Shown in pieces: positions 20,611-39,500 of a DNA stretch of 40,000 nt (position 1 is the stretch's first letter; each line of letters opens with the position of its first letter). A model generated the notes under the pieces. That model was not told where the DNA came from. It saw only the letters and a program-made list of their open reading frames with translations, and ran no database searches. The translations under genes and the position numbers were made by a program. The stretch is from positions 1 to 40,000 of the forward strand of contig JAUYFQ010000062.1 of NCBI GenBank assembly GCA_030690895.1, in the 5' to 3' direction. The DNA comes from Sulfuricellaceae bacterium. GTDB taxonomy: Bacteria > Pseudomonadota > Gammaproteobacteria > Burkholderiales > Sulfuricellaceae.

Positions 20611-23600
20611 TTAAGCCAGGGGTTTCTCTCCCCCCTCTTCGGCCAGCCTCTGATAGGCCCGGTAACGCTCCTCAATTTCCTGCTGGAAGACGGCCATGCA
20701 GGCATCGCCTTCCTTCTCGACATGTTTTAGCAAACCACGGAAACGCGGCTCGCTTTTGACCAGGTCGATGAAGGGGATGCTGGGGGCTTTTGAGTCCATG
20801 ACCAGCGGGTTCTTGCCTTCTGCGATGCGTCTTGGGTCGTGGCGGAACAGCGGCCAATGGCCGGAATCAACAGCCAGTTCCTGCTGGTGGTGCTGGTTGC
20901 TCATGTCGTAGCCGTGCTCGCCGCATGGGCTGTAGGCGATGATCAGCGAGGGGCCGTCGAAGGATTCGGCTTCCAGGAAGGTTTTGAGGGTATGGATGTC
21001 CTTTGCGCCGTAGGCGACATGGGCGACATAGACATTGCCGTAGCTCATGGCGATACGGGCCAGGTCTTTCTTGCCGGTGGCTTTTCCGTTGGCGGCGAAT
21101 TTGGCCGTGGCGCCGCGCGGGGTGGCTTTGCTGGCCTGACCGCCGGTGTTGGAATAAACCTCGGTATCGAGCACCAGAATATTGACGTTGCGCCCGGAGG
21201 CCAGCACATGATCGACGCCACCGAAGCCGATGTCGTAAGCCCAGCCGTCGCCGCCGATGATCCAGACGCTTTTCTTGACCAGGTTTTCCGCCAGGCTTTC
21301 CAGATTGCGCGCATCACTAATAAGGGACTCGCGTAGCGAGCCTGTGTCCCTCTCGCCTTTATGCCCTTCAGGGTACTCTGGGAGAGAGTTAGGAGAGAGG
21401 GAAATGATCGTCTTGAGTTTTGCCAATAGCTGCGCCACGCGCTCGCGCTGTTGCTGGATACCGGCTTCGCTGGACTGGTCGGCGGCGAGGATGGCGTCCA
21501 CCAGTTCTGTACCAAGCTGGTCTTTCATCTTTGTCGCCAGTTCGCCAGCATGTTCTGCATGTTTGTCGATGGTGACGCGGAAACCCAAACCAAATTCGGC
21601 GTTGTCCTCGAACAGCGAATTGTTCCAGGCCGGCCCGCGACCTTGCGTGTTCTGGCTATAGGGCGTGGTGGGCAGGTTGCCGCCGTAGATCGAGGAGCAG
21701 CCCGTCGCGTTGGCGACCACCATGCGGTCGCCGAACAATTGGGTAGCCAGGCGAATATAAGGCGTTTCTCCGCAACCCACACAGGCGGTGGGGAACTCGA
21801 ACAGCGGTTGCATCACCATGGCGCCCTTGATGGTGGAAATGCGCAGTTTGGTGCGGTCAAATTCCGGCAGTTTGAGGAAGAAGGCGAAGTTTTCCCGCTC
21901 TGTTACACGCAATGGCGCTTGTGGCCGCATTTCCAGCGCCTTGTGGCCGTCTTCCTTGCTCACCGCCGGGCAAATGTCCACGCACAGGCCGCAGCCGGTA
22001 CAGTCTTCCGGCGCAACCTGATAACTGACATGCATGCCTTCCTCGAACTCCTTGCCCTTGATCTGGATGTGCTTGAAGCTGGGCGGAGCGTCCTTGGCCA
22101 GTTCGGCATCAAATACCTTGGAGCGGATCGCGGTGTGCGGGCAGACGAAGGGGCATTTGCCGCAGTAGATACAGAGCGCTGCGTCCCATACCGGGATTTC
22201 CTGCGCCAGATTGCGCTTGTCGTAATGCGCGGTGCCGGTCGGCCAGGTGCCGTCGTTGGGCAGCAAGGACACCGGGATCAAATCGCCACGCCCGAGCATG
22301 ATTTCCCCGCTTACGCGGCGGACAAAGGCCGGTGCATTGGCCGGGATGTGGTTCTCCATTTCGAAGCAACTGGAAGACTGCTCGGGCACGTCCACCTGAT
22401 ACAGGTTGGCGAGGGTTTCGTCGATGGCTTTCCAGTTGGCTTCGACGATGGCCTGGCCTTTTTTGCCATAGGTTTTTTCAGCGGCGTATTTGATTTTCTC
22501 GATTGCCACGTCTTGCGGCAGCACGCCGGAAATGGCAAAAAAGCAGGCCTGCATGATGGTGTTGATGCGCGTCCCCATGCCAGTGGCGCGGGCGACGGCA
22601 TACGCATCAATCGTATAAAAGCGCAGTTTCTTGTCTATGATCTGTTGCTGCATCTTGCATGGCAATGTCGCCCAGACTTTATCAGGCGCAGCCGGTGAAT
22701 TCAGCAGGAACACCGCATTGTCAGCCGCGTTTTCGAGCATCTCGATGCGCTCGATGAAAATTGGCTGGTGGCAGGCGATGAAATTGGCCTCATCCGTGCC
22801 GATCAGGTAGCTGGAGTGGATGGGCTTGGGCGAAAAGCGCAGGTGCGAGGTGGTCATTGCTCCGGCTTTTTTCGAGTCATAGACGAAATAGCCTTGTCCA
22901 TAGAGTTCGGTTTCCTCACCCATGATCTTGATGGTGTTCTTGTTGGCAGAAACCGTGCCGTCCGAGCCCAATCCATAAAACAGCCCGCGCAACACGCCTG
23001 TCCCCGCATCGACGCGGTAGGCCGGGTTCCAGTCCAGGCTGGTGTGGGTGAGATCATCGATGATGCCGATGGTGAAATGATTCTTCGGTCTGTCCTTGCT
23101 GAGCTCGTCGAAAATGCCCGCGATCATGCCCGGTGTGAATTCCTTGGAGGAGAGGCCGTAACGACCGCCAACTACCGCTAACCCTCTCCCTAGCCCTCCC
23201 CCGCTCTTGTGCCCTTCAGGGTATGCGGGGGAGGGGACCATTGCTCCCTCTCCCGCCTGCGGGGGAGGGTTGGGGAGAGGGTTAATATTGGCGAGGGGGG
23301 TAGTGCTGGCGAAATTATCGAAAACCCCATGTTCTACCAGCGCAGTCACCACGTCCTTGTAAAGCGGTTCGCCATCTGCGCCAGGCTCCTTGCAGCGGTC
23401 GAGCACGGCAATTTTCCGGGTGCTGGCGGGCAGCACTTCGATCAGCCTCGAAGGGTCGAGAGGCCGATACAAGCGCACCTTGACCATGCCCACTTTCTCG
23501 CCGCGTGCGACCAGGTGTTGCACGGTTTCTTCCACCGCCTCGGCGCCAGAGCCCATGAGAATGATGATCCGCTCCGCGTCCGCCGCGCCTACATATTCAA

Positions 23601-24381
23601 ACAGCTTGTACTGACGTCCGGTGAGCTGGGCGAACTTGTCCATTTCATATTGCACGATGCCGGGCATCAGGTCGTAGTAGGCATTGACCGTTTCGCGTGC
23701 CTGGAAATACACGTCGGGGTTCTGCGAGGTACCGCGCACCACCGGGTGCTCGGGCGAGAGCGCACGGGCGCGATGAGCGCGAACCAGTTCGTCGGAAATC
23801 ATTTCGCGTACGGTTTCGATCGGCACTTGCTCGATTTTCGCCACTTCATGCGAAGTGCGGAAGCCATCGAAAAAATGCAGAATCGGAATACGGGCTTCGA
23901 GCGTGGCGGCCTGGGCGATCAAGGCCAGATCCTGTGCTTCCTGCACCGAGTTGGAACTCAGAAAGGCAAACCCCGTCCCGCGCGCGGCCATCACGTCGCT
24001 ATGGTCGCCAAAAATGGACAAGCCCTGCGCGGCCAGCGAGCGCGCCGCCACATGCATCACGAAAGGCGTCAGTTCCCCGGCAATCTTGTACATGTTGGGA
24101 ATCATCAGGAGCAAACCCTGCGAAGCGGTGAAAGTCGTCGCCAGCGCCCCGGTCTGGAGCGCGCCATGAATGGTTCCCGCCGCGCCTGCCTCGCTTTGCA
24201 GTTCGATCACTTCCGGCACAGTGCCCCACAGGTTTTTCTGACCCATGGCGCTCCAGGCATCCGAATATTCCCCCATCGGCGAAGATGGCGTGATCGGATA
24301 AATGGCGATAACTTCGTTGGTGAGGTGAGCGATGTAGGCGGCGGCTTCGTTGCCGTCAACGGTGACTGTGGTGGCTGACAT
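20611..24381 (-). CDS. nifJ: pyruvate:ferredoxin (flavodoxin) oxidoreductase
   Basis: 1256 aa with two ferredoxin-type clusters (CIYCGKCPFVCP, CTGCGLCVDICP), the TPP motif GGDGWAYDIGFGG and AGGAG upstream of the ATG. It carries two repeat-derived in-frame insertions. Confidence 0.95.
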   Translation of the reverse strand: MSATTVTVDGNEAAAYIAHLTNEVIAIYPITPSSPMGEYSDAWSAMGQKNLWGTVPEVIELQSEAGAAGTIHGALQTGALATTFTASQGLLLMIPNMYKIAGELTPFVMHVAARSLAAQGLSIFGDHSDVMAARGTGFAFLSSNSVQEAQDLALIAQAATLEARIPILHFFDGFRTSHEVAKIEQVPIETVREMISDELVRAHRARALSPEHPVVRGTSQNPDVYFQARETVNAYYDLMPGIVQYEMDKFAQLTGRQYKLFEYVGAADAERIIILMGSGAEAVEETVQHLVARGEKVGMVKVRLYRPLDPSRLIEVLPASTRKIAVLDRCKEPGADGEPLYKDVVTALVEHGVFDNFASTTPLANINPLPNPPPQAGEGAMVPSPAYPEGHKSGGGLGRGLAVVGGRYGLSSKEFTPGMIAGIFDELSKDRPKNHFTIGIIDDLTHTSLDWNPAYRVDAGTGVLRGLFYGLGSDGTVSANKNTIKIMGEETELYGQGYFVYDSKKAGAMTTSHLRFSPKPIHSSYLIGTDEANFIACHQPIFIERIEMLENAADNAVFLLNSPAAPDKVWATLPCKMQQQIIDKKLRFYTIDAYAVARATGMGTRINTIMQACFFAISGVLPQDVAIEKIKYAAEKTYGKKGQAIVEANWKAIDETLANLYQVDVPEQSSSCFEMENHIPANAPAFVRRVSGEIMLGRGDLIPVSLLPNDGTWPTGTAHYDKRNLAQEIPVWDAALCIYCGKCPFVCPHTAIRSKVFDAELAKDAPPSFKHIQIKGKEFEEGMHVSYQVAPEDCTGCGLCVDICPAVSKEDGHKALEMRPQAPLRVTERENFAFFLKLPEFDRTKLRISTIKGAMVMQPLFEFPTACVGCGETPYIRLATQLFGDRMVVANATGCSSIYGGNLPTTPYSQNTQGRGPAWNNSLFEDNAEFGLGFRVTIDKHAEHAGELATKMKDQLGTELVDAILAADQSSEAGIQQQRERVAQLLAKLKTIISLSPNSLPEYPEGHKGERDTGSLRESLISDARNLESLAENLVKKSVWIIGGDGWAYDIGFGGVDHVLASGRNVNILVLDTEVYSNTGGQASKATPRGATAKFAANGKATGKKDLARIAMSYGNVYVAHVAYGAKDIHTLKTFLEAESFDGPSLIIAYSPCGEHGYDMSNQHHQQELAVDSGHWPLFRHDPRRIAEGKNPLVMDSKAPSIPFIDLVKSEPRFRGLLKHVEKEGDACMAVFQQEIEERYRAYQRLAEEGGEKPLA
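21346..21404. repeat. intragenic palindromic repeat in nifJ (encodes SLSPNSLPEYPEGHKGERD)
   Basis: Hairpin TCCCTCTC...GAGAGGGA. The 25-mer at 21380-21404 is the exact reverse complement of 31891-31915 (hoxU/Y junction). Confidence 0.8.
23179..23284. repeat. composite intragenic palindromic repeat in nifJ (encodes NPLPNPPPQAGEGAMVPSPAYPEGHKSGGGLGRGL)
   Basis: Two nested hairpins with outer ends TAACCCTCTCC...GGAGAGGGTTA. The core matches the copies at 31925 and 38659 with about 3 mismatches. Confidence 0.8.
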
Positions 24382-24414
24382 GATGACTCCTGATTGATCC
24401 TGGAAAACTCAATT

Positions 24415-24538
24415 AACCACGGGGCACACGGGGATCACGGGGCAAAATCAATACGTTGCATGACTTTTTGCCATCACCCATCAGGTGAGGCATACCAAAA
24501 TCCAAAATCTCATGGCATCCCCCGCGTGTCCCGTGGTT
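24415..24538. repeat. inverted short-period repeat element (CACGGGG units) upstream of nifJ
   Basis: Left arm AACCACGGGGCACACGGGGATCACGGGG (24415-24442); right arm CCCCCGCGTGTCCCGTGGTT (24519-24538). Collinear with the 5313-5481 element. Confidence 0.7.
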
Positions 24539-24622
24539 CAAATGCGGTTTTAGGTTTATGCACTGAAACCACAATAAACCTGTTGAACCGGGCTGGCAAG
24601 TATCTGGATTTTGCTGTCCGGA

Positions 24623-27436
24623 TTAAGTGCTTTTCCACGATGGGTCGGGCTGCCAGGCGGCGATCCAGGCCGGAAGTTCTGCTGCGGGCATGGGGCGCGC
24701 GATGCCGTGGCCCTGGCCCAGAAAACACCCCAGATGCAGGAGCATCCGGCCGTGCGCGGCTGTTTCCACGCCTTCGGCAATCACGGAGCGGTGGAATGCC
24801 TCGGCCAGGCCGATGACGCCTTCGATGATCGCCATGTCTTCCACATCGGTGAGCATGTCGCATACGAAGGACTGATCGATCTTGAGCGTTTCTGCAGGCA
24901 GGCGTTTCAGATAGGTGAGCGAGGAGTAGCCCGTGCCGAAATCATCCAGGGCGAACGATACGCCTATCCGCTGACAGGCCTTGATCAGGCCGGAGACATG
25001 GGCTACATCCTCGATTGCCGCACTTTCCAGTACCTCCAGTTCGAGCCGGTTTTTCGCCACGTCGGGGTAGCGGTCGAGCATTATCTTCATGCGCTCGGCA
25101 AAATTGAAGCAGGCCAGGTGGTGTGCGGCAATATTGACGCTCACCCGCATATCCAGCCCCGCTGCACGCCAAGCCGCCATCTGGCGCAGGGCTTCGGTAA
25201 TCACCCACTCGCCGATCCGGATTTCCAGTTCAGCATCCTCCAGCATCGGCAGAAATTCGCCAGGCAGCAGCATGCCACGCTCCGGATGGCGCCAGCGGAT
25301 CAGGGCTTCGGTGCCAACCACGATACCTGCGCACATGTCCACCTTGGGCTGATAGTAAAGGCAGAATTCCTCTTTAAGCAGTGCGGTTTCGATCCGGTTG
25401 AGCAATTCACGACGCCGACGAACCGTATGGTCGTGCTGCGGATCAAACAGGTGGTAACGATTGCGCCCGGCTTCCTTGGCCGCATACATGGCCTGGTCGG
25501 CATGGCGCATCAGGGTGTCGGAATCTGACCCATCGCCTGGAAAAATAGTGGCGCCAATGCTGGCGGTGACCGACAGTTTTTCGCCGTCGACAGGCACCGG
25601 TTGTGAAACGGCATGCAGCACGCGGGTCAGCGTGCCTTCGCATTCTTCGACATCGGCCAAGCCTGCCAGCAGAAGCACGAATTCGTCGCCACCCAGGCGA
25701 GCCACGGTGTCGCCGCCGCGCACTGCGGCATTCAGGCGCGTCGCGACTTCTGCGAGCAAACGGTCGCCCATGGCATGACCGTGGGTGTCGTTAATCGGTT
25801 TGAATCCATCCAGATCGAGATAGCAGATGGCCAGTTTTTCTCCGGAACGCTCGGCCTGGGCCAGGGCCACTTTCATACGGTCGGTGAGCAGCGCCCGGTT
25901 TGGCAGGCCGGTTAGCGGATCATAGTGAGCCATATGTTCCAGGCGGGCTTCCTGAGCCTTGAGCTCTGAAACGTCGGTGAAAATACCGATATAGCGGCTT
26001 ATCTTCCCGGCAGCATCTCGAACCGCGACGATGGAAAGGCGATCGGGATAAATGCCGCCATTTTTACGCCGGTTCCATATTTCCCCGTGCCAGTGCCCCT
26101 TGGTCTGAATATCCTTCCACATGGACTCGTAGAAAGCGGGCTCGTGCATGCCAGAAGCCAGTAAGCGTGGCGTTTGGCCCAGCGCCTCGTCGCGGCTGTA
26201 ACCGGTAATCTGGCTGAATGCCGGATTTACTTCGATGATGATCCGTTCGGCATCGGTGACCACGATGGATTCGATGGCGTTCTCGAATACGCCAGCCGCC
26301 AGGGCCAGTCGCTCCAGCGTTTCATGTTCCTCGGTCTGGTCGCGAAAAACCAGGACTACGCCGCCAACCCTGCCATCGGCATGACGAATCGGTGCGGCGG
26401 AATCGGCGATGAGGATCTCCGTGCCATCACGGGCGATCAGCAAGGTATGGTTGGCCAGACCCACGATTACGCCTTCGCGTAGTGCTTGGGCTGTCGGGCA
26501 TTCCACTTCCAGACGCGTGTACTCGTTGATGATGCGAAAAACTTCCAGCAGGGGCTGGCCGCGCGCTTCTTCTGCTTTCCAGCCGGTCAGGCCTTCTGCC
26601 ACCGGGTTCATGAAGCTCACCCGGCTTTCGTTGTCAGCGGTGATCACCCCGTCGCCAATGGAGGACAACGTGACTGAAAGTCGCTCGGCTTCCTGGCGTA
26701 GATCGGCTTGCGCCGTTTCAACGGCTTCTGCCATACGGTTGAAGGCTGTGATAATACGGGTTACTTCCGGGCTGCCACGAAGTGGGATGCGGGTCGATAA
26801 CTGCCCATTGGCCAGTGCCCCCGCGCCTTTGCCGAGTGCGGAGAGGGGGCGCAGACTGCTTTTCAGGATCAGCAGGATACCGATGAAGTCCAGCGCCACC
26901 GCCAGCACCAGAATATTCAAATGGCTAAGGAAGGAAGCCCACAGACGCTCGATTTTGACTGATGCCGAGGTGACGAGCGTGACGGCGCCGTAGTTTCTGC
27001 CTCCTATGCTCAGGGTGCGCGTCGCCTGCTGCTCGGGGATGTTGACCCAGTGGATGAACCATCCCGGCGCGTGAGGTAATTTTGGCTTGTCAATTGCCTC
27101 TATGACCCGGCCTTTTCGGTCCACCCAGGTGACATGATCGATTTCATTGTGTTTGGCCCGCTGTTTGAGCGTTTGTTCGATATTGGCGTAGTCGCCGATG
27201 ACCGCCCACTCTGAAATGGCTGGCAACAGGGATTCCATCTCATTGCTGAGTTCTGCCGAAATCTCGATTCGGGAAAATTCAGCATCCTTGCTGGTGGAGA
27301 CGTAGAGCAGCAGGACGCCGGCCACAATCAAGGCGAATCCCGCACTGAACATCATGCGCATGACGAGGGTCAGACGTGACCAGAATCGTGCCAGCAAATT
27401 TTTCTCCAAATGATCCTGGTAGTCATGTTGAATCAC
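24623..27436 (-). CDS. membrane sensor with HAMP, two PAS, GGDEF and EAL domains (c-di-GMP turnover)
   Basis: 937 aa with N-terminal TM segments, the GGDEF motif (RLGGDEFVLL), the EAL motif (TEALIRW) and DDFGTGYSSL. Confidence 0.9.
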   Translation of the reverse strand: MIQHDYQDHLEKNLLARFWSRLTLVMRMMFSAGFALIVAGVLLLYVSTSKDAEFSRIEISAELSNEMESLLPAISEWAVIGDYANIEQTLKQRAKHNEIDHVTWVDRKGRVIEAIDKPKLPHAPGWFIHWVNIPEQQATRTLSIGGRNYGAVTLVTSASVKIERLWASFLSHLNILVLAVALDFIGILLILKSSLRPLSALGKGAGALANGQLSTRIPLRGSPEVTRIITAFNRMAEAVETAQADLRQEAERLSVTLSSIGDGVITADNESRVSFMNPVAEGLTGWKAEEARGQPLLEVFRIINEYTRLEVECPTAQALREGVIVGLANHTLLIARDGTEILIADSAAPIRHADGRVGGVVLVFRDQTEEHETLERLALAAGVFENAIESIVVTDAERIIIEVNPAFSQITGYSRDEALGQTPRLLASGMHEPAFYESMWKDIQTKGHWHGEIWNRRKNGGIYPDRLSIVAVRDAAGKISRYIGIFTDVSELKAQEARLEHMAHYDPLTGLPNRALLTDRMKVALAQAERSGEKLAICYLDLDGFKPINDTHGHAMGDRLLAEVATRLNAAVRGGDTVARLGGDEFVLLLAGLADVEECEGTLTRVLHAVSQPVPVDGEKLSVTASIGATIFPGDGSDSDTLMRHADQAMYAAKEAGRNRYHLFDPQHDHTVRRRRELLNRIETALLKEEFCLYYQPKVDMCAGIVVGTEALIRWRHPERGMLLPGEFLPMLEDAELEIRIGEWVITEALRQMAAWRAAGLDMRVSVNIAAHHLACFNFAERMKIMLDRYPDVAKNRLELEVLESAAIEDVAHVSGLIKACQRIGVSFALDDFGTGYSSLTYLKRLPAETLKIDQSFVCDMLTDVEDMAIIEGVIGLAEAFHRSVIAEGVETAAHGRMLLHLGCFLGQGHGIARPMPAAELPAWIAAWQPDPSWKST

Positions 27437-27437
27437 C

Positions 27438-27465
27438 TGTAGGTCGGCCTTCAGGCCGACCTACA
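27438..27465. repeat. REP-like perfect hairpin
   Basis: TGTAGGTCGGCC, loop TTCA, GGCCGACCTACA (12-bp stems). No T-tract on either strand. Located between the binding-protein gene and the GGDEF/EAL gene. Confidence 0.7.
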
Positions 27466-27493
27466 TACCCTTGCGATCTATATTGGCAGGCTG

Positions 27494-28333: not shown

Positions 28334-28419
28334 CAGGATTCCCCCGCCATGTCAAATTGTCAGATTTTGCGATCATCCAGCAAATCGCCTGTTTTGCCAA
28401 GAAATGCTTGTTGTTCCGG

Positions 28420-28490
28420 TGATGAGTAATGGGTGATGGGTAATGAGTGATAAAAACCTCCGCCCATCACCCATCACCCATTACTCATCA
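28420..28490. repeat. heptamer-array palindrome (RGTRATG units) in the divergent region upstream of hoxF
   Basis: Perfect 22-bp inverted repeat TGATGAGTAATGGGTGATGGGT (28420-28441) and ACCCATCACCCATTACTCATCA (28469-28490), each arm built from tandem 7-mers. Confidence 0.85.
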
Positions 28491-28553
28491 ATCTGTTTTT
28501 GGTCATACTTCTGGAGTAAAGTTGAAACTCCAAATCTTAGGCGAGACCGAATA

Positions 28554-30847: not shown

Positions 30848-31106
30848 AACATTCGATAAGCAGTTTGATGAAGGCGCAGATGTTACCGCCTCTCTGGATT
30901 TATCCAAGGCAAAGCGAGTTTTGCTGGAGCAAAAACGCGTTAACGTCGATTTCCCTACATGGATGATTGAATCGTTAGATCGAGAAGCGGGGAGGCTCGG
31001 AGTTACCCGGCAATCCATCATCAAGGTGTGGCTCGCCGAGCGCCTCGAAAGCTCCGCTCCTGGCACGCAACCCCAGCGGGTGTGCCGCGATGTGGCTCTT
31101 CGCTAA
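30837..31106 (+). CDS. brnA: BrnA-type CopG/RHH antitoxin
   Basis: 89 aa. The C-terminal RHH-like segment (VNVDFPTWMIESLDREAGRLGVTRQSIIKVWLAERL) is typical of BrnA. 11-nt overlap with brnT. Confidence 0.75.
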   Translation: MKAETFDKQFDEGADVTASLDLSKAKRVLLEQKRVNVDFPTWMIESLDREAGRLGVTRQSIIKVWLAERLESSAPGTQPQRVCRDVALR

Positions 31107-31168
31107 ACTCCACGAAACCATCAGGGTGAATAAGAAAGGATGGCCTGTGGTTAACAAGGCGTTTTGAA

Positions 31169-31906
31169 ATGAAGACTCTGAAAATAGACGGATGCGAAAT
31201 CCCCTTCACCACCGGGCAGACCATCATGGATGCGGCGCTGGCTGCCGGGGTTTATATCCCGCATCTGTGCCATCACCCCGAATTCAAGCCGCACGGTAGT
31301 TGCAAGCTGTGTACGGTGAAGGTGAACGGGCGTCATGTGTCGGCCTGTACCTTGCCGGTGGGCGAGGGTATGGAGGTGGAGAACAATAGTGCGGAACTGA
31401 ATGCCGATCGCCTTGCGCTGGTGCAGATGCTGTTTGTCGAGGGCAATCACTTGTGTCCGACTTGCGAAAAAAGCGGGAATTGCCAGCTCCAGGCGGTGGC
31501 CTACCATCTCAATATGTTGACCCCGCATTACAATCATTTTTACCCGCCGCGCGAGCTTGATGCCTCTCATCCCGATGTGTTCCTGGATCGCAACCGCTGC
31601 ATTTTGTGCGAGCTGTGTGTGCGAGCCAGTCGGGATGTGGATGGCAAGGAGGTGTTTGGCCTTTCCGGGCGTGGAGCCAGTTCCCGCCTGGTGGTGAATT
31701 CACCCAGCGGCAGGCTGGCCGATAGCAGCTTTGCTGTTACCGACAAGGCCGCCAGGGTGTGCCCGACCGGCGCGATTCTGATCAAGCGGGTGGGATTCAG
31801 CGTGCCGATTGGTGAGCGGATTTTTGATCGGCATGACATTAGTGAACTGGGCATTAGTGAACCGGGCGAAGGTGGAGGTCAACATGGCAGTTTCCCTCTC
31901 TCCTAA
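31169..31906 (+). CDS. hoxU: hydrogenase diaphorase iron-sulfur subunit HoxU
   Basis: A 2Fe-2S N-terminus (CHHPEFKPHGSCKLCTV) followed by 4Fe-4S motifs (CPTCEKSGNC, CILCELCVRAS). The last codons and the TAA stop lie inside a repeat element. Confidence 0.9.
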   Translation: MKTLKIDGCEIPFTTGQTIMDAALAAGVYIPHLCHHPEFKPHGSCKLCTVKVNGRHVSACTLPVGEGMEVENNSAELNADRLALVQMLFVEGNHLCPTCEKSGNCQLQAVAYHLNMLTPHYNHFYPPRELDASHPDVFLDRNRCILCELCVRASRDVDGKEVFGLSGRGASSRLVVNSPSGRLADSSFAVTDKAARVCPTGAILIKRVGFSVPIGERIFDRHDISELGISEPGEGGGQHGSFPLS

Positions 31907-32561
31907 CTCTCTCCCGGGGGGTAGCCCCCTCCCCAACCCTCCCCCGCAAGCGGGAGAGGGGGCAATGGTCAAGGGCGCTTGTTCTGATTTGAGGGACGCA
32001 GGCTCGCTTTGCGAGTCTCATATTAGGCCTAAAATCCGTATTGCCACCTGTTCGCTGGCGGGCTGCTTCGGCTGCCACATGTCCTTGCTGGATATTGATG
32101 AAAAACTGCTCGATCTGCTTGAGCTGGTCGAATTCAACCGTAGCCCGTTAACCGATATCAAACACTGCGGGCCGTGTGATGTCGGTATTGTCGAAGGCGG
32201 GGTGTGCAATGCCGAGAATGTCCACGTCCTGAAGGAATTTCGCAAGCACTGCAAGGTGTTGGTCGCCATGGGCGCCTGCGCGATTACCGGCGGCCTGCCC
32301 GCCATGCGCAACAATATTGACCTGTGGGACTGCTTTCAGGAGGTGTATCTGTACGAAGGCGGGCTGGAGGGTGGACAAATTCCAAATGACCCCGAGCTGC
32401 CCCTGCCGTTCGACAAGGTTCACCCCATCTATGAAGTGGTCAAAGTGGATTATTTCCTGCCCGGCTGTCCGCCCTCTGCCGATGCGATCTGGCACTTCTT
32501 GACCGAATTGCTGGCGGGCAGGGAACCAGGCGTGACCGGGAAGCAATTACATTTTGATTAG
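31884..32561 (+). CDS. hoxY: [NiFe] hydrogenase small subunit HoxY
   Basis: The conserved core starts at KIRIATCSLAGCFGCHMSLLDIDE. ATG 31884 has GGAGG 6 nt upstream. An alternative ATG at 31965 lies inside the repeat. The N-terminal ~27 aa are repeat-encoded. Confidence 0.85.
   Translation: MAVSLSPNSLPGGSPLPNPPPQAGEGAMVKGACSDLRDAGSLCESHIRPKIRIATCSLAGCFGCHMSLLDIDEKLLDLLELVEFNRSPLTDIKHCGPCDVGIVEGGVCNAENVHVLKEFRKHCKVLVAMGACAITGGLPAMRNNIDLWDCFQEVYLYEGGLEGGQIPNDPELPLPFDKVHPIYEVVKVDYFLPGCPPSADAIWHFLTELLAGREPGVTGKQLHFD
31888..31977. repeat. composite palindromic repeat at the hoxU/hoxY junction
   Basis: Module TTTCCCTCTCTCCTAACTCTCTCCC (31891-31915) plus a core at 31925-31977 that is 52/53 identical to 38659-38711. 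Confidence 0.85.
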
Positions 32562-32633
32562 GGATGTTGGCTGTTTCCGCACCCCTTATGTGTCCAGCGA
32601 TTCTGGAAATTACTGGGGCGTTTCTTGTTGTTT

Positions 32634-32646
32634 AACGCGTCGCGTT
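32634..32646 (+). promoter_or_regulatory. putative HigA operator upstream of higB
   Basis: Perfect palindrome AACGC-GTC-GCGTT, 14 nt upstream of the higB ATG. The same half-sites recur at 33054-33066. Confidence 0.45.
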
Positions 32647-32659
32647 ATATCATGCAGCC

Positions 32660-32938
32660 ATGATTCAGTCATTCAAGTGCAGCATTACGCAGGCGCTGTT
32701 TTCCGGGCAGGCTGCTCCACGCTTTATAAATATCCGTTCTGTTGCTGAACGAAAATTGCAAATGTTGCACCGGGCAACGCGTTTGGATGATTTGCGTATC
32801 CCGCCTCAAAATAGGCTGGAAAAGCTGAAAGGTACTCGCAAGGCGCAATGGAGTATCCGCATCAATGACCAATGGCGCATATGCTTTCGTTTTGAAGATG
32901 GGAATGCTTTTGAAGTTGAGATCGTGGACTACCACTAA
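32660..32938 (+). CDS. higB: HigB-type (RelE/ParE superfamily) toxin
   Basis: 92 aa with IRINDQWRICFRFEDGNAFEVEIVDYH, typical of plasmid-maintenance killer HigB. Confidence 0.8.
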   Translation: MIQSFKCSITQALFSGQAAPRFINIRSVAERKLQMLHRATRLDDLRIPPQNRLEKLKGTRKAQWSIRINDQWRICFRFEDGNAFEVEIVDYH

Positions 32939-33046
32939 CGGGCATGGCGAATTGCCGCCCCAAATAATGTACCCATGGGCATAAAAAACATCGATTCGCC
33001 ATGCCCGTTTCCCCCACCCCTGCCCTCCCCCGGTGGGAGAGGGGGA
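32939..33046. repeat. two repeat hairpins in the higB-higA spacer
   Basis: Hairpin CGGGCATGGCGAATTG (32939-32954) with CGATTCGCCATGCCCG (32992-33007), then a degenerate GC-rich core CCCCCACCCCTGCCCTCCCCCGGTGGGAGAGGGGG (33011-33045). Confidence 0.65.
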
Positions 33047-33084
33047 CGAAGGCAACGCTTCGCGTTGTTTCACGTTAAAAGGAA

Positions 33085-33399
33085 ATGATTGTGACTGTGA
33101 CCAATGGCATGCGCCCGATTCATCCGGGAGAAATTTTGCGCGAGGAATTCATGATCCCTCTGGGACTGTCTGCCAACGCGTTGGCGCTCGCCCTGCGCGT
33201 ACCTGCGCCACGCGTTAATGACATTGCGCGAGAGCGACGCGCGATCAGTGCCGATACCGCTCTACGCCTGTCACGCTATTTTGGCACCAGCGCGGAATTC
33301 TGGCTGGGCTTACAAGCTGACTTTGACCTGAAAATCACTCAGGCTGAAAATGGCATCAAAATTGAACAGGATATTGTCCCCATGCCCGTTGCGGCATAG
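33085..33399 (+). CDS. higA: HigA-family HTH antitoxin
   Basis: Contains HPGEILREEF...GLSANALALALRVPAPRVNDIARERRAISADTALRLSRYFGTSAEFWLGLQ, classic HigA/VapI. Alternative ATG at 33109. Confidence 0.85.
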   Translation: MIVTVTNGMRPIHPGEILREEFMIPLGLSANALALALRVPAPRVNDIARERRAISADTALRLSRYFGTSAEFWLGLQADFDLKITQAENGIKIEQDIVPMPVAA

Positions 33400-33412
33400 C
33401 GGCGAATCAGCT

Positions 33413-34897
33413 ATGACATTTGAACTGGAAACTGCCGCCCACCCGGAAAACCTCAGACGCGTGGTGATCGAGCCCGTGACCCGCGTGGAAGGGCACGGAA
33501 AAGTCACCCTGCTGATGGACGAGAATAACCGCGTGCACCAAGCGCGCTTTCATATTGTCGAATTTCGCGGTTTCGAGAAATTCATCCAGGGGCGGCCATA
33601 TACCGAGGTGCCGGTGCTGGTGCAGCGCCTGTGCGGGATTTGCCCGGTCAGCCACCATCTGGCGGCGACCAAGGCGATGGACCAGATTGTCGGCGCAACG
33701 ATCACCCCCAGTGCAGAAAAGCTGCGCCGCCTCATGCACATGGGGCAGATTTTGCAATCTCACGCCCTGCATTTCTTTTATCTGGCCTCGCCGGATTTGT
33801 TGTTCGGTTTTGATGCCGAGGTGGGGCAGCGCAATATCGTGGGTGTGGCAACTGCTTTTCCGGACATCGCCCGCCAGGGCATCGCCCTGCGCAAGTATGG
33901 GCAGGAAATCATTCGTCTGACGGCTGGCAAGCGCGTCCATGGCACGGGCTCCATCCCCGGCGGGGTCAACAAGAATCTGAACCGCGCCGAGCGGGATGGT
34001 TTGCTGGCCGAGATCGACCAGATCATTGCCTGGAGCCTGGCGGCGGTGCAAATGGTGAAAAAACTCTTCAGTGACCGGCCAGAGTTTTATACCGGCTTCG
34101 GCTTCTATCGCTCCAGCTTCATGAGCCTGGTGCGCCCGGATGGCGCGCTGGACTTGTACCACGGCGGCTTGCGCGCCCGCGATGAGCACGGACAGGATAT
34201 TTTCGACCATCTCGATACCGACCGTTACTGGGACGTCATCCACGAAGAAGTCAAACCCTGGTCGTACATGAAATTCCCCTTCATCCGCTCGCGTGGGCCG
34301 GAGGAGGGCTGGTATCGGGTGGGACCGCTGGCACGGGTGAACAATTGCGATTTCATTCCCAGTCCCCTGGCAGAGCAGGAACGCCAGGTTTTCAAGCAAG
34401 CCGGCGATGCCACTCATGCCACGCTGGCCTACCACTGGACGCGCATGATAGAAATGTTGCACTGCGCCGAAGTCATCCGCGAGCTGTTGCTGGACGACGA
34501 CCTGTCCGGGGACGATCTGGTCAATACCGGCGAGCGTCAGTTGCGCGGCGTCGGGGTGATCGAAGCGCCACGCGGCACCTTGATTCACCACTACCGCATC
34601 AATGAAGACGAACAGATCGTGCGCGCCAACCTGATCGTTTCCACTACCCACAACAACCATGCCATGAACGAAGCCATTCGCCAGGTGGCGCTGCAATATC
34701 TGGATGGACAGGAACTGACCGAAGGCCTGCTCAACCATATCGAAGTCGCCATCCGCGCCTTCGACCCCTGCCTCTCCTGCGCCACTCATGCGTTGGGAAA
34801 AATGCCGCTGGAAGTGGAGTTGCTGGATGCCGCCGGAACGCAGGTCGGTCGTCTGGTGAAAAACTCTGAAGAGCCGGACTGGTGCGCCCCATCCTGA
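33413..34897 (+). CDS. hoxH: [NiFe] hydrogenase large subunit HoxH
   Basis: N-terminal Ni-binding RLCGICPVSH and C-terminal DPCLSCATH followed by a cleavable extension. ATG 33413 lies 13 nt after the higA stop; the track start 33350 would overlap higA. Confidence 0.92.
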   Translation: MTFELETAAHPENLRRVVIEPVTRVEGHGKVTLLMDENNRVHQARFHIVEFRGFEKFIQGRPYTEVPVLVQRLCGICPVSHHLAATKAMDQIVGATITPSAEKLRRLMHMGQILQSHALHFFYLASPDLLFGFDAEVGQRNIVGVATAFPDIARQGIALRKYGQEIIRLTAGKRVHGTGSIPGGVNKNLNRAERDGLLAEIDQIIAWSLAAVQMVKKLFSDRPEFYTGFGFYRSSFMSLVRPDGALDLYHGGLRARDEHGQDIFDHLDTDRYWDVIHEEVKPWSYMKFPFIRSRGPEEGWYRVGPLARVNNCDFIPSPLAEQERQVFKQAGDATHATLAYHWTRMIEMLHCAEVIRELLLDDDLSGDDLVNTGERQLRGVGVIEAPRGTLIHHYRINEDEQIVRANLIVSTTHNNHAMNEAIRQVALQYLDGQELTEGLLNHIEVAIRAFDPCLSCATHALGKMPLEVELLDAAGTQVGRLVKNSEEPDWCAPS

Positions 34898-35340
34898 TTT
34901 TTGGCTACGGCAACCCGAGCCGGGGTGACGATGCCATTGGCCCGCTCCTGATCGAGCAACTGGCCAGGCTGGACTTGCCGGACGTGGATCTATTGACGGA
35001 TTTCCAGCTCCAGGTCGAGCATGCGCTGGATCTGCGCGGGCGCGAGCGGGTGTTGTTTGTCGATGCCAGTTATGTCTGCCAAGACCCTTATGAGCTGACC
35101 CGCATCCAGCCTGCGGCTGACGCCAGCTATACCTCCCACGCCATGAGTCCTGCGGCAGTGCTGCAAGCCTGTGCCGAATTGTATGGTGAGGAACCCGAGA
35201 GCTGGATGCTGGCAGTGAGGGGCGTCTCGTTTGAGTTGGGCGAGCCTTTGAGCGTCGAGGCTACAGGCAGTCTGGATGCGGCTGTTACGAAGGTTTTGGT
35301 GTGGCTTGACGGTGACTGTGCGCAGAATGAAGTAAAATGA
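34882..35340 (+). CDS. hoxW: hydrogenase maturation endopeptidase HoxW
   Basis: The motif GYGNPSRGDDAIGP is typical of HybD/HoxW proteases. The GTG start overlaps the hoxH end by 16 nt. Confidence 0.85.
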   Translation: MRPILIFGYGNPSRGDDAIGPLLIEQLARLDLPDVDLLTDFQLQVEHALDLRGRERVLFVDASYVCQDPYELTRIQPAADASYTSHAMSPAAVLQACAELYGEEPESWMLAVRGVSFELGEPLSVEATGSLDAAVTKVLVWLDGDCAQNEVK

Positions 35341-35346
35341 ACACCT

Positions 35347-35895
35347 ATGGCACTCAAAGCAACCATCTTCAAGGTAGAACTCAATATTTCAGACATGGAT
35401 CGTCATTATTACGGCGACCATACGCTGACCATTGCGCGCCACCCATCCGAAACCGACGAACGCATGATGGTGCGTCTGCTGGCGTTCGCGCTGCATGCGC
35501 ACGAGGCATTGGCGTTTGGGCGGGGGGTCAGTACCGATGACGAGCCAGACTTGTGGCAAAAGGATTTGACCGGTGCCATCGAGTGCTGGATCGACGTCGG
35601 CCTGCCGGATGAAAAACTTATCCGCAAGGCTTGCGGGCGCTCGAAGCAGGTGTTTGTCTACAGCTATGGCGGCCGTGGCGCGGATATCTGGTGGGGGCAA
35701 AACAGCAGCAAGCTCGAACGCCTGGATAACCTGACCATCATGAACCTGCCCCTTGCCACCACTCAGGCTATGGCGAAACTGGCCGAGCGCAACATGTCTT
35801 TGCAATGCACCATTCAGGATGGCGAAATCTGGCTGTCTGGCGAGAATGACACGGTGCAGGTGAGTTTGATACCCATCATGGCATCTCGTAGGTAA
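35347..35895 (+). CDS. yaeQ: YaeQ family protein
   Basis: MALKATIFKVELNISDMDRHYY...LTIARHPSETDERMMVRLLAFAL matches the YaeQ family pattern. Confidence 0.85.
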   Translation: MALKATIFKVELNISDMDRHYYGDHTLTIARHPSETDERMMVRLLAFALHAHEALAFGRGVSTDDEPDLWQKDLTGAIECWIDVGLPDEKLIRKACGRSKQVFVYSYGGRGADIWWGQNSSKLERLDNLTIMNLPLATTQAMAKLAERNMSLQCTIQDGEIWLSGENDTVQVSLIPIMASRR

Positions 35896-35968
35896 AGGGG
35901 TAGCTTCACCCGCCCTGATTTCAATTTTTAGATCGGTGGTGCATCTGGTGAGCTACTGCGCAGTTAAA

Positions 35969-36093
35969 CTGAGATTGTTCATTAGACAGGATCTCGTCAA
36001 AACAACGGGATGTAGGGGCGAATTTATTCGCCAAAGGCGGTTAATACCCATGGGCACAAGAACCGCCCCTACAAGTGCTAATGGACATCTGGG
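35969..36093. repeat. MITE-like element, second copy of the 13631-13750 family (opposite orientation)
   Basis: Shares ATTGTTCATTAG, a TGTAGG...CCTACA core (36011-36073) and AATGGA..GGG ends with the reverse complement of 13631-13750. TTAAA lies on the left flank (35964-35968). Confidence 0.55.
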
Positions 36094-36159
36094 TGCAACT
36101 GTCATTGCATGCTGAGCTTTGTAACGCTTTCCGGAACTTGAACTTAAAACGGGGGTAAG

Positions 36160-36549
36160 ATGAAAAAGATTGTAATTTTATCAATGTGTTGCGCTGTATT
36201 TTCTGCCCAGGCAGGCGCTTTCAAGTGCCAGGACGGAAATGGACGCACGGTTTACCAGGAGACGCCCTGCGAACAGGCCAGCCTTAAATCTGTTGGAACG
36301 ATCAAGGCGCCCGAACTCAGCTCCGATGAAGAACGCGCGCGCATGAAGGGCATCAATAAAAAAGCCAGTGCGGATTTTGATGATGCCATGAGCACAAGGA
36401 AAAAAATGGAAAAATCCGAGAAAGAAGAGCGGGAAGCCGCGCACAAGCGATCTCTGGATGAACGGAATGCCATAGCCAGCGAACGACAGGCTAGGGCAGC
36501 CGAAAGAGATGCGCAGGCGAGCGAAGTGCGCAACACCTTAAAACGGTAG
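36160..36549 (+). CDS. DUF4124 domain protein (secreted, charged C-terminal tail)
   Basis: Signal peptide, then FKCQDGNGRTVYQETPC (DUF4124 pattern), then a Lys/Glu/Arg-rich tail. Confidence 0.7.
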   Translation: MKKIVILSMCCAVFSAQAGAFKCQDGNGRTVYQETPCEQASLKSVGTIKAPELSSDEERARMKGINKKASADFDDAMSTRKKMEKSEKEEREAAHKRSLDERNAIASERQARAAERDAQASEVRNTLKR

Positions 36550-36578
36550 AGGGGCATCGGCAAAAACAAAAGGCACGG

Positions 36579-39500
36579 TTAACCCGCCACCACTCGAACC
36601 CTGCCTTGCTCATCCCGCACAGCCCGCCCCAGCGCCACCAGGGTTTCCAGCAGTTGCGGCAAGCGTTTTTTCCATGCGCCCTTGCCGCTGAAATGCTCGG
36701 CCAGCTCGGACTCGGAAAGCGGCTTGCCTGCGCTGGACAAAATCTGGGCGATGGCGGCCATTTGGGCGGGGAGTTCGGCGGGCCAGGGGGATTTGCTTTG
36801 CGCATTCTCCCCCTCGCCGGTATTTACCCCCTCCCCAACCCTCCCCCGGAGGGAGAGGGGGCTATCCATTGGGGTTTCAGCGTTTGTACCATTAAGTTGC
36901 TGCTGTTGCGGGGCTGCCTGGGGATGCTGGTAGGCGGGGCGCAGCCAGCGGATTTGGCCTTGGGCTTCCTCGGCGGCGCGTTCGGTGTTGAGGGCGACGA
37001 GTCTTTCGAGGATAGTTTCGGCCACGCCCCCTTCTCCTCCGGCCTGGTAGGGCGCAATAACCAACGGGCATTGCGCCGGAGGCATCTGGTGCAATGCGCC
37101 ACGCTTATTGCACCCTACAATATCCAGGTCGCTCCAGCCATAAGCTTGCAGCACCGCCGCATCAAGGTCGTCGTGGAAGGATTTGAGCACGGCGACCAGG
37201 CCTTTTTCGTAAATCGCCTGCTCCTTCGCGTTTCGGTCTGCGCCAGTTCTCAGTTTTTCCAGCACGTTATATAGCCCGGTCAGCGTTAACTCTGGATGCT
37301 CGGCCAGCACGCGCTTGCGGTGGGCGTCGAGCTGTTCGGCGAGAGAGCGAATGCGAGCAGATAAAACAAATCGCTCTTGTCCATTGCCCCCTCTCCCTCC
37401 GGGGGAGGGTTGGGGAGGGGGTAAGTCGGGGAAAGGGAAAGTCTCGAAGCAGCGGGATTTGTTGTAGCGCGGCCTGTCTTCCAGCGTGCCACCTTGCGCC
37501 AGCGCCCAGATGACATGCACCTGGCTCGACAGCACGCCCAGCCAATAAGCATCATCGAGCGCGATGCAAATCAGTTTGTTGTCCGGCGCAATTTCAGCAT
37601 CCAGAAACTGGAAAACTCGGTGCTTGGCGGTTTCGACGGTGGCGATGTAGCGTGGCAGGCCGGTGAGCGTGGCACGCATGACTTTGCGCGGCTCTCCGAA
37701 AATCCACCAGTTGTCGCGGTAACTTGCCCGGTTGTTGAGGTCACGTTCGGGTTTTACCCGTTCCAGCACCCATTGATAGGTGGCTGGCCAGCGGCGACGC
37801 ACTTCGTCTGCATCATGGCCGTAGAGATCGATCAATTTGACGCCGCGCGGTCGGTCGGTGAGGTCGCGACCATTGCGGTAGGGCTTGATTGGCGCATCGG
37901 TTTCGAGTTGCGCAGCTTGTTCCGGCGTGACGATAAAACCCGAACCAAACAACTGAAAACCACGATTCGCAAGCCCTTCATTGGCCCGCAACCCCAACGC
38001 CCCCGCCACATTCGCCCCAATGCTCAAGTCGGCATGAATCACGCCAACACGCTGTGCCAGCGTCACTTCCAACCCCTCGCCGCTGCCGCTTCGCTCGTCG
38101 GTCACGGTGAGCAGGCATCCCTGCTCCCCTCTCCCTCCGGGGGAGGGGGTGGGGGTGGGGGAGGGGGAGGGGGAGGGCACGCCAACCGTCATCGCAATCC
38201 GAACCGCCGCGCCGCCGCTGTTTTCCACCCAGGGATGGTCGGGGATGGCGAAGGCCAGGTGTAGCATCTTCACCCTCTCCCCAACCCCTCTCCCGTCAAG
38301 GGAGAGGGGTTTTTCTCCCCTCCCCCCTCGCGGGGGAGGGGCTGGGGGAGAGGGGTTTAAGGTCGGAGAGGGAGATAAATACGCTTCCAGCACGCGGCGG
38401 TTGAAGGTCTGGCGCAGGCTGTTGGTGGTGATGAAGCCAAAGCGTTGCGCCTTGCCTGCTGTGACCAGCGCGGCGGCCTTGTGCCACCAGAACATGACCA
38501 GGTCGGCGGATTCCGGCACCTCCGGGTAGGCGGCGCGCAAGGCGTCCACGTAGGCGTCGCCCAGCGCGGCACGCATGGCGGATGCGCCGATGAAGGGCGG
38601 GTTGCCGATGATGTAGTCGGCTTCGGGCCAATCTGCTGGTTTACCCTTGCCTGCTTTACCCCCTCCCCAACCCTCCCCCGCAAGCGGGAGAGGGGGCAAT
38701 GGTGAAGGGCGATGGGTTTTATCTGGGGGCAATGGTGAGGGGCGATTGTTTAGAACGGCGTCACGGCATTCGATGTTGTGAAAATCGCGCAGCACCGGTT
38801 CGGGCGGGAGGCTGGCGCCTTTTGTGCGGAAGTGCCATTGCAGGTGGCCGATCCATAGCACCAGTTCGGCGATGGCGGCGGCGCGGGGGTTGAGTTCGAT
38901 TCCAAGAAACTGGTGCGGATCGACGGTCAGTCCTTCGGCGTCGAGACTGCCGGAGGCGCCGAGGTCTTGCAGCAAATCCAGCACTTCGCCTTCGAGCCGC
39001 TTCATGTGTTCCATAGTGACGTAGAGGAAGTTGGCCGAGCCGCAGGCGGGGTCGAGTACGCGAATGTTGCATAGCCGGTAGTGGAAGGCGCGGATTTCCT
39101 GTTGCGCTTCTTTTGCGCGGCCTTCGCGGTCGAGCAGCAGGGCGGCGGCCTGGATGTTGGCCCATTCTGCGCGTAGCGGTTCCATCACGGTGGGGAGCAC
39201 CAGGCGTTCGACGTAGGCGCGGGGGGTGTAGTGCGCGCCGAGGCTGTGGCGTTCGCTGGGGTCGAGGGCGCGTTCGAGCAGGGTGCCAAAAATGGCGGGT
39301 TCGACCAGCGTCCAGTCGGCATGGGCGGCGCGTAACAAAAGGGTGATTTGTTCGCGGTTTAACGCTAGCGCGGTTGGATTTTTGAAGAACTTGCCGTTGA
39401 AGCGCGGCAGTTTGGCGCGCAGGGCGATGGAGAAACCGCCGCTGTCCATTTTTTGCCACAGTTCGCTGACCATGGCTTCAAATTGTTCCGGCGCGTCGGC

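Follow-up and report, generated by a model that had tools for sequence, protein, structure and literature searches.

Repeats of the BoxC/PIT/TM_ECO type have been described under several names (Bachellier et al. 1990s; Hoyne/Maher 2000; and, in PMC4666352, Holder et al. 2015), with 3610 occurrences in 262 proteobacterial genomes. In E. coli K-12, 23 of 23 TM_ECO copies are intergenic. The motif forms a triplex in vitro and is tied to genome instability; it showed no promoter, terminator or polymerase-blocking activity in vivo, and neither its function nor a mobilising element is known (PMC4666352). Here we analyse repeats of this kind in a 40,000-nt stretch of DNA (the window) from a metagenome-assembled genome (MAG) of a Sulfuricellaceae bacterium (contig JAUYFQ010000062.1, positions 1 to 40,000), where they lie in frame inside nifJ, hoxY and a gene for an MmeI-family protein. 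They are probably non-autonomous selfish elements inserted in coding DNA, with DUF559 as the best candidate partner.

Rickettsia palindromic elements (RPEs) are AT-rich, longer, and known only from an obligate intracellular genus, whereas the core repeat of the window is about 40 nt long, GC-rich, spread across phyla in free-living hosts and usually extragenic. Both are palindromic repeats that occur in frame in genes staying open, in several frames and at tolerated positions; in the window, in-frame insertions were likewise found in intact open reading frames (ORFs), at structurally permissive positions. By analogy, the core appears to work like an RPE, but to judge by its host range it is probably no member of that family. 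An earlier note on this DNA had named RPEs as the precedent (for which PMC3733652 and PMC3184786 cite Ogata et al. 2000) and did not recognise such behaviour as described for this kind of genome. The precedent stands as far as in-frame repeats presumably translated in intact genes are concerned, but the novelty was overstated: in-frame insertions of the REP (repetitive extragenic palindrome) type in free-living bacteria have been described (PMC3733652; PMC3184786; PMC3110155), among them REPs that lie in frame within genes of Opitutus, Thauera, Xanthomonas and other bacteria (PMC3733652, by Di Nocera et al. 2013) and the intragenic BRE repeats of Betaproteobacteria (PMC3110155).

The REP/REPIN systems with their REP-associated tyrosine transposases (RAYTs) resemble the repeats studied here in several respects. 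In both, short GC-rich hairpins often form inverted dimers and lie mostly just 3' of genes, with an intragenic minority notably in genes for tRNA synthetases, helicases and repair proteins, and a single gene of the nuclease/transposase type is flanked by inverted copies (REPtron). Unlike REPs, the core lacks a GTAG or CGTC tag and ends in CCCC... and ...GGGAGAGGGRGC, and the flanked gene encodes a Vsr-like PD-(D/E)XK protein (DUF559) instead of a Y1 HUH transposase; GTAG/CTAC ends occur in the window only on a separate 72-nt dimer (37047-37118). The small dispersed repeats of cyanobacteria, said to go back to Elhai et al. in 2008, are reportedly very small, nest in one another and occasionally lie in coding sequence. 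The window repeats share with these and with bacterial MITEs (reviewed in PMC10969869) the very small nesting units and the occasional location in coding sequence, but the sequence families differ, and neither terminal inverted repeats nor target-site duplications are seen here.

Core element A and its copies in the window

Judged by its sequence, the core (element A) fits the BoxC/PIT/TM_ECO intrastrand triplex motif and is not a new family (PMC4666352). The pattern 5'-CCCTCNCCC N3-6 GGGNGAGGG N3 GGGNGAGGG-3' was fitted with one stem mismatch allowed, and the reverse complements of the copies at 31925, 36827, 37386 and 38659 read CCCTCTCCC-(GCTTGC/TCC)-GGGGGAGGG-TTG-GGGAGGGGG, with one mismatch in block 3. 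The edges of A, set by comparing 127 copies having unrelated flanks, give the anatomy CCCC-CTCCCC-AA-CCCTCCCCCG-loop-(C)GGGAGAGGG-RGC, i.e. two pyrimidine blocks and one purine block in an imperfect hairpin. Identity with BRE was considered and rejected, as the described BRE unit of ~90 bp in tandem arrays does not fit (PMC3110155). At the gathering threshold, Rfam assigned no family anywhere in the window.

Exact matches to the 22-nt core CCCCCTCCCCAACCCTCCCCCG stand at 31925(+), 36827(+), 37400-37421(-) and 38659(+); it recurs with one mismatch at 23260-23281(-) and with three mismatches at 23182(+) and 33011(+), and no match was obtained in 100 shuffles of the sequence, which confirms the recurrence noted before. 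An nhmmer profile built from 127 copies found ten core copies in the window and no match in positions 1-23,000. Degenerate relatives, suspected near 33011, 38126, 38273 and 38315, were recovered by this profile or by the three-mismatch search:

23181-23236, plus strand: core copy
23243-23282, minus strand: core copy
31924-31963, plus strand: core copy
33023-33045, plus strand: core copy
36826-36862, plus strand: core copy
37386-37423, minus strand: core copy
38126-38147, minus strand: degenerate core copy, recovered by nhmmer only
38272-38309, plus strand: degenerate core copy, recovered by nhmmer only
38318-38349, minus strand: degenerate core copy, recovered by nhmmer only
38658-38697, plus strand: core copy

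Together with two companion elements and two 18-nt mini-inserts, the ten copies occupy nine sites between 21.3 and 38.8 kb, while the first 21 kb are free of any of them. Orthologue alignment identified eight of these as true in-frame insertions (two in PFOR, the product of nifJ, one at the HoxY N-terminus and five in the MmeI-like protein), while the ninth, the higB-higA spacer, holds the sole extragenic copy of the window. Pfam confirmed the proposed hosts nifJ, hoxY and the methyltransferase gene as encoding PFOR, HoxY (with HoxU) and an MmeI-family protein. As in the described BoxC/PIT/TM_ECO repeats, the three-block units are multicopy, occur in both orientations and frequently as inverted pairs, have loops that are more variable than the stems, and come without a reported transposase. 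They differ from the all-intergenic K-12 copies by their location in frame in genes at eight of nine sites and by nesting, and the lineage of the window has in addition a GCAATGG... tail and a companion element of 70 nt.

The copies at 31925-31977 (hoxY) and 38659-38711 (MmeI-like gene) are 52/53 identical, one base being different, exactly as first read. This identity between unrelated genes, presence or absence in close relatives, intact frames, nesting and linker positions show that the insertions are real and recent, in line with the suspicion of mobile or recently acquired palindromic repeats.

The earlier note had described the repeats as free of stop codons in all six frames. This is true of the ~40-nt core, but the flanks of some copies do contain stops and the companion 25-mer contains a TAA. 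Since 25% of composition-preserving shuffles of the 53-mer are stop-free as well (vs 8% of the 53-mers of the window, which has a GC content of ~57%), six-frame freedom from stops follows mostly from the polypyrimidine/polypurine composition. Within genes, at least five combinations of frame and orientation are predicted to be translated, covering both orientations, where at least four had been counted before. The inserts could be seen as selected protein modules, i.e. flexible Pro/Gly linkers of benefit to the host proteins, and their location at linkers and variable loops would suit this role. Yet the same DNA in different frames and orientations yields unrelated peptides, a diversity by which the explanation is largely refuted; moreover, the DNA is conserved rather than the peptide, and orthologues function without inserts. 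We regard such modules as very improbable.

Single A copies fold with -10.6 to -13.1 kcal/mol (z = -1.4 to -2.5), marginally better than shuffles. Composite repeats fold strongly, with z = -6.9 for PFOR insert 1 (-37.8 kcal/mol) and z = -3.5 for the single strand of PFOR insert 2. These values bear on a role as host-beneficial DNA or RNA structures (triplex, G-quadruplex, hairpin) that tune transcription, translation or mRNA stability, in which case the intragenic presence would be functional. The near-identical sequence across phyla, the G-rich strand GGGGGAGGGTTGGGGAGGGGG with four G-tracts, the triplex formed by TM_ECO in vitro (PMC4666352), the common position of copies just after stop codons in other taxa, and the purine block plus in-frame ATG that the A tail gives to hoxY are consistent with it. 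The weak folding of single copies argues against such a role, and so do the use of both orientations and at least five reading frames within genes, presence or absence among close relatives without linked gene change, and the lack of promoter, terminator or polymerase-blocking activity in vivo (PMC4666352); on balance, it seems clearly improbable.

Insertions in nifJ

Two of the in-frame sites lie in the PFOR gene:

20611..24381, minus strand: nifJ (PFOR) host gene, 1256 aa, open across two insertion sites (Pfam and orthologues)
23176..23290, minus strand: PFOR insert 1, two inverted A copies, 23243-23282(-) intact and 23181-23236(+) with the 18-mer (23206-23223) in its loop
21316..21405, minus strand: PFOR insert 2, element B (TTTCCCTCTCTCCTAACTCTCTCCC-RGAG-GGNGAGAGGGAC plus hairpin GGCTCGCTACGCGAG ... 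TATTAG) with nested 18-mer
21358..21375, minus strand: 18-nt mini-insert TACCCTGAAGGGCATAAA (YPEGHK), filling the loop slot of B; the B of locus L119 lacks it but is otherwise the same

The protein has the Pfam domains POR_N, PFOR_II, POR, EKR, Fer4 and TPP_enzyme_C. It was compared with 120 orthologues of ~1190-1219 aa, the closest relatives being from Sulfurimicrobium, Sulfuricella and Gallionellaceae. Site 1 (residues ~363-403) has a counterpart only in P0001, the closest orthologue (93% BLASTP identity, 95% in the alignment), in a shorter version. Site 2 (residues ~993-1022), coding for ISLSPNSLPEYPEGHKGERDTGSLRESLIS, is present in P0002 (84% identity, Sulfurimicrobium) minus YPEGHK, and absent from P0001 and every other orthologue. 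The DNA at site 2 shows the same gradation: locus L119 has B minus the 18-nt unit, and L120 is empty. Locus L120 carries PFOR and hoxFUYH in the same order as the window, with no insert and no repeat copy in 23.6 kb; relative to it, sites 1 and 2 are in-frame inserts of 117 and 81 nt. Mapping onto a structure places insert 1 between residues 350 and 350 of the solved Moorella PFOR 6CIN, exactly between two alignment blocks and without a counterpart there.

Adjacent to the PFOR 3' end, between this gene and a trypsin-like protease gene, there is an inverted repeat (20485-20618) with 27-nt arms, 85% complementary and 80 nt apart.

Element B and nesting into hairpin loops

The companion 25-mer, identical at 31891-31915(+) and 21380-21404(-) as the earlier note had stated, is the 5' part of the 70-nt element B. 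This element has the same three-block design as A, TTTCCCTCTCTCC-TAAC-TCTCTCCC-GGAG-GGAGAGAGGGA, plus a small hairpin and the end TATTAG. Alignment of three B copies revealed constant ends (TTTCCC...TATTAG) and one variable interior slot, which is empty in L119, occupied by the 18-mer in PFOR and by A plus tail in hoxY. The 18-nt unit TACCCTGAAGGGCAYAAR occurs twice within the loop of a hairpin, at 21358-21375 and at 23206-23223 (the second time with an exact 14-nt core, 23210-23223), and in the latter case the hairpin is an A copy of PFOR site 1. These arrangements directly show nesting into hairpin loops. The TTTCCC... and ...TATTAG ends of B are not inverted repeats, and no target-site duplication is visible when filled and empty sites are compared.

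The hox operon and higBA

In the hox operon, a composite of B and A covers the junction of hoxU and hoxY:

31169..31906, plus strand: hoxU (Pfam), with its present stop TAA (31904-31906) inside element B
31884..32561, plus strand: hoxY, ATG preceded by GGAGG, codons 3-48 repeat-derived
31891..32026, plus strand: element B with an A copy (31922-31977) plus tail in the loop slot (three-B alignment)
32660..33399, plus strand: toxin-antitoxin pair higB (32660-32938) and higA (33085-33399) (Pfam HigB-like_toxin and HTH_3; NCBIfam HigA)
33008..33048, plus strand: A copy with three mismatches in the 146-nt higB-higA spacer (core match, nhmmer)

In L120, the hoxU end ...GGGNE* overlaps the hoxY ATG (MSDVKKIRISTC). 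The hoxY of the window has the ribosome-binding site and ATG as in L120, followed by 46 repeat-derived codons and then PKIRIATC, and the Pfam domain Oxidored_q6 starts only at ...KIRIATC. It is the TAA of the 25-mer that provides the present hoxU stop codon. A second ATG of hoxY, at 31965 and in frame, comes after the A copy's purine block GGGAGAGGGGGCA and is a possible alternative start.

The higB-higA pair is inserted between hoxY and hoxH, which are separated by a gap of 9 nt in L120. The single extragenic copy lies between higB and higA, in agreement with the earlier reading; a 134-aa minus-strand ORF over 33011 was rejected as spurious.

Some further features of this region may be mentioned. 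At 31958-31967, the lineage-specific A tail GGGAGAGGGGGCAATGG puts an ATG a few bases past a purine-rich Shine-Dalgarno-like block. Just to the left of the spacer A copy lies GGGCATGGCGAAT...ATTCGCCATGCCC (32940-33006), an inverted repeat of 13 bp without mismatch whose loop measures 41 nt. In the Gallionella locus L002, too, the copy has a left flank of this kind, GCCATGCCCGTTTCCCC, a similarity that suggests a longer composite element. The annotated hoxF start (28443) falls within another inverted repeat (28420-28490), with arms of 26 nt that are 96% complementary and separated by 19 nt. Because the hoxF ORF of the window is ~37 codons longer than in relatives, the true start may be downstream of the annotated one.

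Insertions in the MmeI-like gene

The third host carries the largest number of inserts:

36579..39992, minus strand: gene for an MmeI-family methyltransferase/restriction-type protein (Pfam MmeI_N, MmeI_hel, MmeI_Mtase, MmeI_TRD)
36826..36862, plus strand: C-terminal linker (DSPLSLRGRVGEGV) with an A copy that is antisense to the gene (core match, alignment, nhmmer)
37047..37118, minus strand: GTAG...CTAC palindromic REP dimer, 72 nt, in frame (VGCNKRGALHQMPPAQCPLVIAPY), of a different family
37372..37423, minus strand: 48-nt insert vs short homologues, with an A copy and its GCAATGG tail (LPPPQPSPGGRGGNGQERF)
38126..38175, minus strand: 39-nt insert with a degenerate A copy and a G-run (SPSPSPTPTPSPGGRGE)
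38268..38369, minus strand: degenerate A pair, 38272-38309(+) and 38318-38349(-), a 102-nt insert
38640..38751, plus strand: A copy (38658-38697), then two tail repeats GGGGGCAATGGTGARGGGCGAT (38692-38718, 38725-38751), an insert of ~102-105 nt

The ORF of the window is 100% identical to P0121 (1245 aa, Sulfuricellaceae bacterium MAG), and from this length it follows that the gene runs past the window end. Compared with short homologues there are at least seven inserts: those of 39, 48, 102 and ~105 nt, the 72-nt REP dimer, the copy in the C-terminal linker and one past the window end. All of them are at positions where homologues differ in length. The REP dimer is of the RAYT-associated type and represents a second, unrelated repeat family in this gene. 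At the same variable sites, MmeI-like proteins of other Betaproteobacteria (P0123, P0124, P0134, P0176) have other repeat-coded peptides, e.g. PSPSGRGAGGEGG, PSPLAGEGPGERG and GDRPQFYESKNRGLSPI; repeats of several families seem to end up repeatedly in genes of this kind.

This unusual load of at least seven inserts, and the origin of the sequence from a MAG, could raise the suspicion that the host ORFs are decaying pseudogenes or the inserts artefacts of metagenome assembly. However, the frames are open over 1256 (PFOR) and 1245 (MmeI-like) codons, the same inserts are found in independent assemblies (P0001, L119, L122), and the flanking sequence is highly conserved, so that this explanation can hardly be credited.

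Distribution of the repeat family

A scan of one genome per species yielded at least 118 loci with the core in other taxa, comprising Alpha-, Beta- and Gammaproteobacteria, Planctomycetota, Acidobacteriota, Armatimonadota and Myxococcota. The 27 specified bases are identical and the flanks unrelated; the core is thus found nearly unchanged in at least five phyla. Here as in the window it is dispersed and multicopy, in both orientations and with inverted pairs. In three loci of a Thioalkalivibrio MAG (L014, L053, L085), an A-type core is seen beside CCCTCTMCMTCAGGGAGAGGGYYGGGGTGAGGG, a BoxC variant resembling that of E. coli; this single genome thus harbours several variants of the superfamily. 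Viral contigs gave two matches for A and none for B, and there is therefore no apparent sign of a phage vehicle.

Intragenic copies in frame were called by an open frame plus periodicity of the G+C content at third codon positions (GC3) on both sides, a test suited to high-GC taxa. In other taxa only 6 of 106 copies passed, compared with 55% of random positions in the same loci, i.e. ~94% of the copies are extragenic by this test, commonly right after stop codons. In the 57% GC window the test is too insensitive (39% of random positions pass, and 3/8 true sites were found), and homology was used there instead. Pfam confirmed intragenic copies elsewhere in genes for SDR (L002), MutY (L047), TgpA (L049), AlaRS (L102), LeuRS (L095), HrpB (L100) and ThiC (L033), three of the seven being from Gallionella. 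A metagenome scan for the lineage-specific tailed variant found two loci only, one of which (L122) has an RlmN-like ORF with two in-frame copies. The claim that the family is found almost only inside ORFs accordingly holds for the window and L122 (10/11 sites intragenic) but not for other taxa: the family is normally extragenic with a low rate of in-frame survivors, and the lineage of the window is enriched in them, on an estimate biased by the choice of a repeat-rich window.

Association with DUF559 genes

All-vs-all clustering of the ORFs of the 118 repeat loci revealed one small recurrent family, DUF559 (Vsr-like PD-(D/E)XK, Pfam-confirmed). Other recurrent clusters were only large generic families (ABC-F, SDR, others); no recurrent transposase-like family appeared in this clustering, which included no search aimed at RAYT. 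Four of the five DUF559 genes in random 8-kb loci lie within 170 nt of a repeat copy. In L093 (Hyphomicrobiales), L023 (Kofleriaceae), L124 and L129, the gene is bracketed as rc(A)-DUF559-A (rc, reverse complement), with rc(A) 7-22 nt upstream of the start codon and the forward A at or overlapping the 3' end. DUF559 genes with inverted copies on their flanks come from Rhizobiales, Myxococcota and Betaproteobacteria; in E. coli the gene is ycjD, where the repeat is present on the 3' side only. In L124 and L129 the bracketed gene is positioned between pheS and pheT; as a side aspect, L093 and L124-L129 (Rhizobiales/Hyphomicrobiales) have a repeat-flanked DUF559 gene in the pheS-pheT spacer of the conserved rpmI-rplT-pheS-pheT operon.

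The association extends into coding sequence. In L116, hrpA is interrupted in frame by a cassette with the order A-like, rc(A)-like, DUF559, A-like, which separates the DEAD domain from Helicase_C. The MmeI-like homologue P0176 has a DUF559 domain with repeat-coded flanks at the linker that holds a solo copy in the window gene. Of 120 close homologues of the L093 protein, ~112 have the repeat as their C-terminal end, read in one of three frames (SPLPNPPPQAGEG, PSPTLPRKRGRE, PSLPSPASGGGG), and those with N-terminal extensions show reverse-orientation frames of the repeat; at these flanks it is, on the evidence of the frames, the DNA and not the peptide that is conserved. A profile made from tail-less DUF559 cores was run over 1.84 billion cluster representatives. 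Of the 150 best matches, 66 have a repeat-coded signature at most 50 residues from the domain, compared with 0-0.1% in control segments, and several are cassettes in larger proteins, some of these with an HsdS-like WFVDFxPVRAK motif.

In E. coli, ycjD (DUF559) ends CCCTCTCCC-TGAAAGAG-CGAGGGGG, a BoxC-like hairpin, and is followed downstream by a duplicated ycjD 3' fragment and a canonical BoxC. In L123 (K-12 1351040-1351760), the duplicated fragment lies beside the BoxC. TM_ECO no. 9 is listed between fabI and ycjD (Holder supplement table, PMC4666352); in the literature searched, no paper linked DUF559 or ycjD to BoxC. Being present in 3378 of 5426 complete E. coli genomes (62%), ycjD is an accessory gene. 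Two lines were dropped. The ycjD-less locus of UTI89 (L134) was uninformative as an empty site, as its sapF-fabI interval is a replacement island (TetR plus RND efflux operon), and the conserved stem mismatch (T:G, one strand) was not used as evidence for a Vsr-type substrate, since some DUF559-flanking copies have perfect stems.

By analogy with REP-RAYT, BoxC/PIT-type repeats might be the cis elements of a cross-phylum selfish system around DUF559 that enters genes in frame as solo repeats or cassettes, a proposal that we hold tentatively and rate somewhat short of an even chance.

In one Sulfuricellaceae lineage, that of the window, the core with its GCAATGG tail variant, the 70-nt element B and the 18-nt loop insert have entered coding DNA. 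In the reading that we hold as probable, they persist because the polypyrimidine/polypurine composition keeps the core stop-free in every frame, because selection would keep only insertions with a net length that is a multiple of three, and because the surviving inserts lie in inter-domain linkers, variable loops or termini. The inserts would then be translated into peptides rich in Pro, Ser, Gly, Arg and Glu, and the hairpin loops of resident copies would be favoured secondary targets, giving rise to nested composites. For the putative mobilising activity the best candidate is a DUF559 endonuclease, with genes flanked in several phyla by inverted repeats as RAYT genes are by REPs.

Alternatively, DUF559 genes may be homing-type endonuclease genes that enter pre-existing repeat doublets, with the solo repeats spreading otherwise (template switching, gene conversion, or an unidentified transposase). 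L003 has an 'empty' rc(A)-28 nt-A doublet next to a DUF559 gene; the solo copy in the MmeI-like linker of the window and the full cassette at that linker in P0176 fit this scheme too, as do the group I intron homing endonucleases among nucleases of the Vsr/DUF559 fold (PMC3424549) and the fact that 98% of copies are solo. Homing, however, needs homologous flanks and by itself leaves dispersal to unrelated sites unexplained, and the flanks are two whole inverted copies instead of two halves of one site. We consider this alternative possible, though doubtful.

Several points weigh against the selfish-element reading with its DUF559 partner. There is no DUF559 gene in the 40-kb window, nor did a RAYT or other transposase turn up there, although no RAYT-directed screen of the window ORFs was made; in other taxa, only 3/173 copies adjoin an intact DUF559. 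Most of the 120 close DUF559 homologues come as orthologues from a single locus, pheS-pheT, so that they amount to one event, and the DUF559 flanks in L116 are a different variant from the solo copy on the same contig. UTI89, with no ycjD at the fabI locus, has 1 TM_ECO and K-12 has 23, but this correlation between ycjD and BoxC number is based on two strains, is confounded by phylogroup and is suggestive only. Neither a target-site duplication nor a terminal inverted repeat can be defined for A or B. Furthermore, the window was picked for its richness in copies, which makes 8/9 intragenic sites a biased estimate for the genome, and translation of the inserts is predicted from intact frames.

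Unrelated to these repeats, a 9-nt unit, TCGTGTATT, is present in ~6 tandem copies at 5417-5479 of the window.

Implications

Repeats of the BoxC/PIT/TM_ECO type occur in large numbers in E. coli and in hundreds of further genomes and have been linked to genome instability, with function and spread unexplained since the 1990s. The window shows that essential genes, those for PFOR and a hydrogenase subunit, can take up repeats of a BoxC-type family and stay intact. The outcome comprises lineage-specific peptides, altered gene ends (a new hoxU stop and possibly a new hoxY start) and nested composites, and such inserts are traps for annotation, orthology calling and structure prediction in MAGs. 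If the DUF559 partnership is true, it would give a role to a domain of unknown function and make E. coli YcjD a testable candidate for an enzyme recognising or moving BoxC. We regard the association of the repeats with DUF559 as the most useful outcome, as the origin of BoxC-type repeats becomes experimentally testable.

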